DNA of 4,590 bases, from the IMG/VR virus record IMGVR_UViG_2734482538_000008; one strand, given 5' to 3'. The DNA is from a virus. Taxonomy: Duplodnaviria; Heunggongvirae; Uroviricota; Caudoviricetes. Shown here piece after piece: positions 2,562-4,590 of the stretch. Every line of letters begins with the position of its first letter. Within the stretch, counting starts at the first letter, position 1. Below the pieces are notes generated by a model, which did not search any database, was not told the DNA's origin, and saw only the letters and a list, made by a program, of their open reading frames with translations. The position numbers and the translations under genes were made by a program.

Positions 2562-3248
2562 ATGACCCCAATAAACATATTTATGACAGTTGCTGATTTC
2601 AAACGGCCCAAATTGGAGCTCCCAAACGGGGCAAACAAACTACTACTGCACTCTTGCTGTGCTCCATGTTCCGGTGAGGTGATGGAGGCGCTTCAGGCCT
2701 CGGGAATCGACTACACCATCTTTTTCTACAACCCGAACATTCATCCTCAGAAAGAGTATTTAATTCGTAAGGATGAGAATATTCGCTTTGCTGAACAACA
2801 CGGCGTGCCGTTTATTGATGCTGATTACGACACAGACAACTGGTTTGAACGAGCCAAAGGAATGGAATGGGAGCCCGAACGAGGGATCCGTTGCACCATG
2901 TGTTTTGACATGCGTTTTGAGCGGACAGCGCTGTACGCCGCTGAAAATGGTTTCAGTGTGATCAGCAGTTCACTGGGCATTTCACGCTGGAAAAATATGC
3001 AGCAGGTTAACGACTGTGGGCGGCGAGCCGTCGCGCATTATCCGGGCATGGTGTACTGGGATTATAACTGGCGCAAGCAGGGCGGCTCGTCCCGTATGAT
3101 TGAAATCAGCAAGCGCGAAAAATTCTATCAGCAGGAATATTGTGGCTGTGTGTATTCTCTGCGCGATACCAATCTACACCGCAAATCTCAGGGACGCCCT
3201 CTTATCAAAATTGGTCAACTCCACTACGGTAAAGAAGAGAAGGAGTGA
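2562..3248 (+). CDS. queH: QueH-like epoxyqueuosine reductase homolog (DUF208 family), 228 aa
   Basis: Translation carries the N-terminal [14 protein letters not shown] motif, then [21 protein letters not shown] and QEYCGCVYS. This cysteine pattern is what I recognise as the DUF208/QueH family. Assigned from memory of the family, not from a search. Start could be ATG 2562 or ATG 2583; neither has a clear SD. Stop TGA at 3246-3248. Confidence 0.8.
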
Positions 3249-3395: not shown

Positions 3396-3681
3396 NNNNN
3401 NNNNNNNNNNNNNNNNNNNNNNNNNNNNNNNNNNNNNNNNNNNNNNNNNNNNNNNNNNNNNNNNNNNNNNNNNNNNNNNNNNNNNNNNNNNNNNNNNNNN
3501 NNNNNNNNNNNNNNNNNNNNNNNNNNNNNNNNNNNNNNNNNNNNNNNNNNNNNNNNNNNNNNNNNNNNNNNNNNNNNNNNNNNNNNNNNNNNNNNNNNNN
3601 NNNNNNNNNNNNNNNNNNNNNNNNNNNNNNNNNNNNNNNNNNNNNNNNNNNNNNNNNNNNNNNNNNNNNNNNNNNNNNNNN
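3396..3681. other. Run of 286 N (assembly gap or masked sequence)
   Basis: Directly visible. It lies between a candidate promoter plus hairpin (3270-3354) and an intrinsic terminator (3712-3763), so whatever that unit encodes is hidden. Confidence 0.99.
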
Positions 3682-3711
3682 GTGTCAGGCATCCTCAACG
3701 CACCCGCACTT

Positions 3712-3763
3712 AACCCGCCCATCGCTGTGATCTCTCAGCGTTTCGGCGGGTTTTTTGTTGTTT
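3712..3763 (+). terminator. Rho-independent terminator (bipartite GC-rich hairpin followed by T-run)
   Basis: Outer stem CCCGCC (3714-3719) pairs with GGCGGG (3745-3750), extendable by two A-T pairs. Inner stem CGCTG (3723-3727) pairs with CAGCG (3736-3740) around an 8-nt loop. Followed by TTTTTTGTTGTTT (3751-3763). The orientation terminates + strand transcripts coming from the left. Confidence 0.55.
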
Positions 3764-3776
3764 ATTTCCGGTGAAT

Positions 3777-3804
3777 TTGATTCGCGCACCTTCGCAGATA
3801 GAAT
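3777..3804 (+). promoter_or_regulatory. Candidate sigma70 promoter (TTGATT -35, 16-nt spacer, TAGAAT -10) for the downstream ORFs
   Basis: -35 TTGATT at 3777-3782 and -10 TAGAAT at 3799-3804. The -10 is overlapped by the GCAGATAG motif (3794-3801). It lies directly downstream of the terminator and about 80 nt upstream of ATG 3886. Confidence 0.4.
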
Positions 3805-3885
3805 CGACTCACTTAAGTAGCGCGCAGGGAGAAGAGGGATGGACCCCGAACAGGGGAGAGCTATTTATCTGGAAGGATTCTGAAG

Positions 3886-4173
3886 ATGAAAATCGAAGAA
3901 TTGCGTGAAATTTTTAGTGAAAATGGCCTCTATGCTGTGCGCGTTGAGAATGGAGCGATTGTCAGCCATTGCCGCATTAGATGTTTGCAATCTCAACAAA
4001 GGAAGAGCGGTGCTGTGTTATTTTATTTTTGTAATGGACTTCTGACGGACGGTTTTATTTTGCGTGAGGACGAATTTGTCACATCATTACGGGTTTTGAA
4101 AGAGATTGGTTTTAAGGCTGGTTTTCTGCTTTTGCTGAAGAATAAACTCATCTACAATCTTGAGCAGGATTGA
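3886..4173 (+). CDS. Hypothetical protein (95 aa), AT-rich moron-like gene
   Basis: GGAAGGA at 3871-3877 sits 8 nt before ATG 3886; stop TGA at 4171-4173. My manual count gives about 40 percent GC, lower than the neighbouring genes. It has its own upstream promoter candidate. I do not recognise the family. Confidence 0.5.
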   Translation: MKIEELREIFSENGLYAVRVENGAIVSHCRIRCLQSQQRKSGAVLFYFCNGLLTDGFILREDEFVTSLRVLKEIGFKAGFLLLLKNKLIYNLEQD

Positions 4174-4211
4174 ACTCCTGCTGTGTAACACCGTGCCACC
4201 GGAGAAAGCCG

Positions 4212-4565
4212 ATGGCACATATACAACTGGTCAAACAAACCTCTTCCGGATTACTTCTCCCGGCGACGCCGGAGAGTTGCGATTTTCTGCATCAAATCAA
4301 AATAGGTGAGTGGATACACGCAGACTTTAAGCGTGTGTGTAACTACGCATTCCACAAGCGTTTTTTCAAACTCCTGCAACTGGGTTTCGATTACTGGACT
4401 CCGGTCGGTGGGGCGATCACGCCTCGCGAACGAAAACTGGTGTCCGGTTTCGTTGATTACCTGTGTGAATCAGTAGGCCGGGAACATACGCCAGCTCTGA
4501 GCGAAGCCGCAGAGCAATTGAGGTGTACTGGCAATAGCGGACACTACCATTTGTTCTTTTTTTAA
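4212..4565 (+). CDS. Hypothetical nin-region protein, possibly YbcN/DUF1367-like (117 aa as sequenced; may be truncated)
   Basis: GGAGA at 4201-4205 sits 6 nt before ATG 4212. Translation MAHIQLVKQTSSGLLLPATPESCDFLHQIKIGEWIHADFKRVCNYAFHKRFFKLLQLGFDYWTPVGG... resembles my recollection of DUF1367/YbcN-type prophage proteins (low certainty). The TAA stop (4563-4565) uses the last base of a T7 run (4557-4563). Confidence 0.55.
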   Translation: MAHIQLVKQTSSGLLLPATPESCDFLHQIKIGEWIHADFKRVCNYAFHKRFFKLLQLGFDYWTPVGGAITPRERKLVSGFVDYLCESVGREHTPALSEAAEQLRCTGNSGHYHLFFF

Positions 4566-4590
4566 GCAGCCATCTGATGATATTTTTCCC

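Follow-up and report, generated by a model that had tools for sequence, protein, structure and literature searches.

Rem of the Escherichia coli K-12 prophage Qin is a published antirepressor of DicA (Ragunathan et al. 2023, PMC10448788). With Rem, expression from the DicA-repressed dicB promoter (dicBp) rises 165-fold, and the toxicity and filamentation associated with the protein need dicB or dicF (PMC10448788). Deletion of rem in K-12 has no effect under laboratory conditions, and the study raises the question of which signal turns the gene on (PMC10448788); the silent deletion argues against steady expression in the lysogen. Antirepressors are also described in the Gifsy prophages, where a LexA-controlled dinI-antirepressor unit lies downstream of the replication genes, behind a terminator-like palindrome that is followed by a promoter (Lemire, Figueroa-Bossi and Bossi 2011, PMC3121763). 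Strain genotypes in the same study (deletions irsA-stf) put irsA beside the antirepressor gene, and DicA and RacR are listed in the Gifsy repressor family (PMC3121763). The published link between Rem and the Gifsy antirepressors is a transitive PSI-BLAST connection (PMC10448788).

The stretch of DNA analyzed here (the window, 4,590 bases) comes from a lambdoid prophage in decay. Its extremities (1-106 and 4518-4590) are IS ends that are 100% repeated elsewhere in related genomes and are adjoined by IS3-type transposase genes in L018 and L019. The left end truncates a ydaU-like gene, which is broken into two frames (ORFs 80-343 and 513-782), and the right end truncates a DUF1367 gene. Between the IS ends lie the broken ydaU-like gene, a DnaC-like gene, DUF977, a gene for a 118-aa zinc-ribbon protein and queH, followed to the right by a masked stretch, ORF 3886-4173 and the 5' part of the DUF1367 gene; the N-runs at 1218-1561 and 3396-3681 are masks. 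The window is 100% identical to L019 (CP102341.1) in every aligned block, and the only difference between the two is the copy number of a GAGGAA repeat (near 413-433), L019 being 30 nt longer. An E. coli record (L001) is a 99.9% identical relative, and Shigella sonnei and S. flexneri assemblies are named as sources of an identical 95-aa protein. The element probably belongs with the DicA-type lambdoid prophages of the Shigella/E. coli group. The 118-aa protein (2058-2414) gave a weak match to a TFIIB-type zinc ribbon (E 1.7e-4, under the Pfam cut-off) and a match to phrog_1621 (E 3e-56), and it is conserved beside DUF977 in these prophages.

ORF 3886-4173 (plus strand, like every feature of the hok-rem-DUF1367 region given below) begins with ATG and encodes 95 residues. 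The first-pass annotation, made from the bare sequence, had found no motif that it could place in this protein and had proposed a homology search. That search revealed a clear member of the Rem family: BLASTP against K-12 Qin Rem (b1561) gave 68% identity over 80 aa (E 2e-34), the 95-aa protein matched phrog_340, and Pfam PF27490 ('Rem') was assigned to the identical protein P0001 in a precomputed table, on which this assignment rests. Homologues are annotated as rem in the phage records PPompW, mEp460_ev081, PhiR42_1 and Rac, and the Rac record reads 'prophage antirepressor'. The family match covers residues 1-80, and residues 81-95 form a frameshifted tail. A moderately confident AlphaFold2 model (pLDDT 71) contains a helix (3-9), four strands, a second helix (68-74) and a disordered tail, with the fold contained in residues 1-75. 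The neighbors of the structure model were uninformative, a BFVD fold search returned nothing with E below 0.2, and a search of solved structures by sequence returned none. Partial matches to the Rem profile (7-10 in each protein) were also found in P0107 (3023 aa), P0114 (599 aa) and P0135 (497 aa), the best stretches being at profile positions 6-32, 8-46 and 47-72, as if a Rem-like β-hairpin unit also occurred as a repeat in these large proteins.

We conclude that ORF 3886-4173 is probably rem, carried by a DicA-type lambdoid prophage in decay, and that, by analogy, it encodes a small antirepressor that derepresses the early operons. As with K-12 Rem and the Gifsy antirepressors, the protein would bind the short, non-cleavable DicA-family repressor of the prophage; binding would pull the repressor off its operators, and the early operons would be derepressed. 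The gene would form its own transcription unit, with a promoter after the hok terminator, a conserved leader and no terminator before DUF1367. The present analysis provides the identity of the gene, its anatomy and synteny, the co-occurrence of a DicA-family repressor and the absence of LexA and DicA sites, and the literature provides the antirepressor activity of K-12 Rem and the binding and release of the Gifsy repressors. On the same analogy, the present copy, 68% identical to K-12 Rem and altered at its C-terminus, would still act on a repressor that is 62% identical to DicA. The regulatory circuit of this particular prophage may be a relic, because IS elements cut both sides of the window and the ydaU-like gene is broken.

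The partner repressor lies outside the window and was taken from L019, which is 100% identical over the aligned blocks; there, a 135-aa HTH_3 repressor (L019:3659-4066, minus strand) is encoded some 6 kb upstream of rem, and a Cro-like gene also lies upstream. L001 has the same repressor, which shares 62% identity with DicA. More broadly, of 45 long-form rem loci with sufficient upstream sequence, 43 contained a DicA-family repressor. Rem subtypes do not correspond one-to-one with repressor alleles, and K-12-like Rem occurs with three repressor types. This mixing would fit binding of Rem to the conserved C-terminal half of the repressors (CSPTW..FGDEDK ... EMRARVENFN.LFEELL) and, by analogy, the cross-reactivity of Gifsy antirepressors; the association of Rem subtypes with several repressor immunity types fits the prophage cross-talk seen in Salmonella. 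The left arm of the intact relative L016 contains a C4 antisense RNA and an isrK RNA (L016:3464-3652, minus strand; L016:2855-3703), which lie upstream of a Rha/Ash-type gene and overlap its 5' end; in addition to rem, this prophage thus seems to have another antirepressor module, one resembling P1 immI.

The gene order in the related loci examined is fixed: hok - rem - DUF1367 (irsA) or ydfU - ybcO/rusA - Q. Within this order, a Fic gene splits hok from rem in L008-L010. In L021 the genes called from QueH to rem include IS-type genes, with no hok called beside rem, and IS-type genes directly precede rem in L015; the rem promoter and leader are kept in both. In the window, the masked stretch 3396-3681 corresponds to the hokD toxin gene of the near-identical loci L001 and L019, and sok RNA is found upstream in L001 (Rfam RF01794, 117 bits); judged from these loci, the masked stretch is probably the hok/sok locus. 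A terminator had been noted ahead of ORF 3886-4173, and it is real. The intrinsic terminator (3712-3763), identified from its fold, inverted repeat and alignment, has arms at 3712-3719 and 3745-3752 (AACCCGCC/GGCGGGTT) followed by the T-run TTTTGTTGTTT, and its predicted fold (-28.8 kcal/mol) has a z-score of -4.1 against shuffles. A simple terminator scan overlooked the 3712-3752 hairpin because its loop is 25 nt long. Relative to the other loci, the terminator loop of this copy is enlarged by a 23-nt insertion (CCATCGCTGTGATCTCTCAGCGT), which forms an extra inner helix; the hok 3' UTR, visible at 3682-3763, is otherwise invariant across loci. Given the order hok-rem, it is the hok mRNA that ends at the terminator before rem.

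Immediately downstream, the putative rem promoter (3777-3804) consists of a -35 hexamer TTGATT (3777-3782), a 16-nt spacer and a -10 hexamer TAGAAT (3799-3804). A promoter scan gave 9 of 12 matches to a sigma-70-type consensus, and the scan found two such matches where 1.5 were expected, so a single one is not above chance. In the alignment, the TAGAAT hexamer is invariant in all rem loci examined, and a TTGAnn hexamer is found 16-18 nt upstream of it in at least five unrelated upstream sequence contexts, namely the hok terminator (two versions), Rac-type sequence, a Fic gene and another unrelated sequence. It is the retention of both elements across unrelated contexts, and not the scan score, that makes a conserved sigma-70-type promoter convincing, and the comparison across loci bears out the promoter that the first-pass annotation had placed after the terminator. 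From the promoter position, transcription would start near 3811, giving a 5' leader of ~75 nt (3811-3885) that contains a purine-rich core TAGCGCGCAGGGAGAAGAGGGATGG (3818-3842), a small hairpin (CCCC 3844-3847, loop, GGGG 3853-3856) whose stem is kept while its loop varies freely, and the Shine-Dalgarno sequence. The latter, GGAAGGA (3871-3877), read from the sequence 8 nt ahead of the ATG, had already been recognized as a good one.

The core is nearly invariant, being 93-100% identical between loci in which the coding sequence beyond codon 26 is 32-80% identical. The block from the -10 to about +45 is likewise nearly invariant and precedes three types of small ORF. These types (Rem, a 57-aa form and a 55-aa form) were recovered in an IMG/VR scan with the core pattern (L024-L142), in which invariance of the core exists by construction; independent support for its conservation comes from the loci found through the protein. 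In the 55-aa form, all sequence beyond the leader hairpin differs. Conservation at the rem locus is thus highest at the transcript start rather than in the protein, which offers a small, concrete target for mutagenesis. The overall leader fold is unremarkable (MFE z = -0.43), and alifold of the leader kept only the small CCC/GGG hairpin. An upstream ORF in the leader (ATG 3839, 14 codons) was rejected as a conserved coding unit because its length and frame vary: the frame has 3 codons in K-12 and 8 in the Rac type, and the ATG is GTG in L015. Rfam gave no known RNA family at the rem leader, and the scan found no promoter-like site on the minus strand. When antisense partners acting in trans were sought across the prophage, the leader matched only its own opposite strand and one chance 11-mer.

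No LexA box (CTG-N10-CAG) was found in 3682-3885, where the best LexA-like 20-mer agreed with the consensus at 11 of 20 positions and, within the CTG/CAG core, at only 4 of 6, indicating that the SOS response is not the direct trigger at the rem promoter. Nor was any DicA-type operator (TTAG-N6-CTAA, a sequence deduced from immunity regions) found near rem. The question of the signal that activates rem is thereby narrowed to a promoter without a LexA box, unlike that of Gifsy, and without a DicA operator. The input signal would most likely be read through the invariant block from the -10 to about +45. It is possible, although doubtful at present, that the -10, TAGCGCGCAGGGAGAAGAGGGATGG and the CCCC/GGGG hairpin constitute a portable sensor cassette, set behind at least five unrelated -35 regions and ahead of three types of small, antirepressor-like ORF, at which a non-SOS host signal may decide the induction of DicA-type prophages. 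The leader contains six GGA triplets in 78 nt with the Shine-Dalgarno sequence included, the maximum for the window (1.65 expected), and a GGA-binding RNA regulator such as CsrA is for this reason a candidate reader of the leader; no literature link between rem and CsrA was found.

Downstream of rem, a conserved hairpin (4164-4181) separates the gene from its neighbor. It is formed by G + CAGGA and TCCTG + C around the loop TTGAAC, which reads (C/T)TGAAC across loci and in this copy includes the rem stop codon. Pairing is maintained in 95% of the alignment cells and three of the six pairs are changed on both sides, giving a covariation of 0.53 compared to 0.18 in shuffles; none of 500 shuffles reached 0.53 and slid controls were much lower. 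The hairpin is also kept after the 57-aa variant, where the flanks differ. No T-run follows it, and candidate roles are as a processing site, a stabilizer or a weak terminator. The 5' part of the DUF1367 (irsA-like) gene begins at 4212 and is cut by the IS end at about 4518; the assignment comes from the intact copy in L001 (PF07105, E 1.7e-96). No terminator was found between rem and DUF1367, the sole terminator-like site downstream of rem being a weak stem of 5 bp within the DUF1367 coding sequence. In a second DUF1367 prophage on the L022 contig, hok-rem is replaced by an 800-nt AT-rich stretch in which no gene is called (L022:17778-18590), which shows that DUF1367 prophages do not all have the module.

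The altered C-terminus raises the question of whether this rem is still a working gene. The T4 run at 4122-4125 is one base shorter than the corresponding TTTTT or CTTTT of all other loci, and the DNA alignment of eight loci shows that the missing base shifts the frame, replacing the family ending SAF(A/E)(E/D)(E/D)-stop with LLLLKNKLIYNLEQD-stop; the family-frame stop would be the TAA at 4143-4145, and one T added to the run would give a repaired protein of 86 aa. Protein P0003 is 100% identical over 80 aa and then continues SAFAEE. The ending AGFSAF plus acidic residues, which is absent from this copy, is nearly invariant in the Rem family, a regularity of the family and not a proven requirement. 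Loss of the conserved C-terminus through this deletion could have inactivated the copy, and the IS ends, the broken ydaU-like gene and the truncated DUF1367 gene are what would be expected around a pseudogene in the making in an IS-riddled prophage. That rem is such a non-functional remnant is nonetheless unlikely. Residues 1-80, comprising the entire predicted folded part, are intact, as are the promoter, leader and Shine-Dalgarno sequence. The assembly collection lists the 95-aa form in 4517 blocks, and the nine loci with this form that were examined showed no further lesions. Proteins of a K-12-like sublineage (P0044 and P0045) have a comparable alternative tail, LLFQKNKLIYNLARG, which suggests that change at the C-terminus is tolerated, and the T-run may be a recurrent slippage site.

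The first-pass annotation had read the gene as a moron, that is, imported cargo expressed from the prophage, and had noted that morons in such regions often act in lysogenic conversion, superinfection exclusion or anti-defense. Its description of the gene was sound: ORF 3886-4173 is AT-rich, separately promoted and located directly after a terminator. The GC content estimated at about 40 percent and below that of the neighbors was computed as 39.6% (GC3 39.6%), against 45.7-57.4% for neighboring genes and 48.7% for the window, so that the GC match named there as a refutation was not seen and the point about composition stands. Among the 24 genes of L016, rem has the lowest GC, and 2.7% of 288-nt windows are equally low. 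Low GC is, however, common to the whole Rem family, whose members are all AT-rich relative to their own loci (38-45% GC), and it is a family trait rather than a sign of recent acquisition. Classical lambdoid morons, for example lambda bor and lom, resemble rem in their atypical base composition and in having their own promoter behind a terminator; rem differs from them in lacking a terminator of its own, in its conserved position and in being regulatory rather than beneficial to the host. It is the importation as variable cargo that fails, because rem occupies a fixed backbone site in all DicA-type loci. A moron would be absent between the same flanks in close relatives, and rem was present in all DicA-type relatives examined; although the second prophage of L022 shows that the module can be missing, this sole rem-less DUF1367 prophage seen is an unrelated one. 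The variable slot lies elsewhere, between the replication genes and hok. In the window it holds the epoxyqueuosine reductase gene queH (2562-3248), which is the moron-like gene here if anything is, and in other loci (L002, L006, L008-L014) it holds a restriction endonuclease, AbiH, SIR2, AAA_15+DUF4435, KilA-N/BstA, Fic or the Paa adhesin. The suggested functions fare no better: PADLOC defense-system models gave no match, the known function of Rem is regulatory, in the relief of DicA repression, and the phenotypes of K-12 Rem all act through DicA, DicB and DicF, with deletion of the gene silent. A true moron is for these reasons very improbable, and rem, by analogy, would belong to the phage's own on/off circuit. 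The correction removes a false lead, in that the gene is no conversion or anti-defense moron but probably the antirepressor of a widespread class of E. coli/Shigella prophages.

The idea that rem is the protein partner or antitoxin of hok, prompted by their adjacency in related loci and by the label 'Antitoxin Rem' in the PhiR42_1 record, can be set aside almost entirely, because in the type I system of hok the role of antitoxin falls to the sok RNA, present upstream, rem has its own promoter behind the hok terminator, a Fic gene lies between the two genes in L008-L010, rem keeps its promoter and leader in L015 and L021 with IS-type genes before it and no hok called beside it in L021, and the toxicity of K-12 Rem depends on dicB/dicF.

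The antirepressor assignment is strengthened by comparison with the K-12 gene. The two proteins are 68% identical over the 80 folded residues, the genes share the site after hokD and before the Q-side genes together with the same -10, leader and Shine-Dalgarno sequence, and the partner repressor in each case is of the DicA family, the one here being 62% identical to DicA. This copy differs from K-12 Rem in four additional residues in the loop between strands 2 and 3 (SQQRKSG compared to RKNG) and in its frameshifted 15-residue C-terminal tail. At the level of the locus, it precedes DUF1367 rather than ydfU, the hok terminator loop contains the 23-nt insertion, and its host prophage, unlike Qin, has lost parts to IS elements. 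The kind of protein, an antirepressor, was known already; the C-terminal frameshift, the nearly invariant block kept before three ORF types and the covarying 3' hairpin are new here.

The Gifsy prophages provide the second comparison. The Gifsy-1 record has the order dinI, a 73-aa ORF ('hypothetical protein') and a gene for a 200-aa DUF1367 protein, which is 53% identical to the DUF1367 protein of the present prophage type. If the 73-aa ORF is read as the antirepressor and the 200-aa gene as irsA, as is done here, rem is in the same slot as the Gifsy antirepressor gene. An hhalign comparison of Rem with this presumed antirepressor was not significant (E 0.11, probability 0.5%), and the suggestive aligned stretch was NG.VT....R.D......EMG. 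The rem locus differs from the Gifsy unit in having no LexA box and no dinI, with no ORF between the promoter and rem. The resemblance lies in the arrangement and in the target: like GfoA, GftA and GfhA of Gifsy-1, -2 and -3, Rem is a small protein encoded outside the immunity region, its gene follows the replication genes and directly precedes irsA/DUF1367, a terminator-like palindrome and a separate promoter stand ahead of it, and the target would be a repressor that is short, non-cleavable and of the same family as DicA and RacR.
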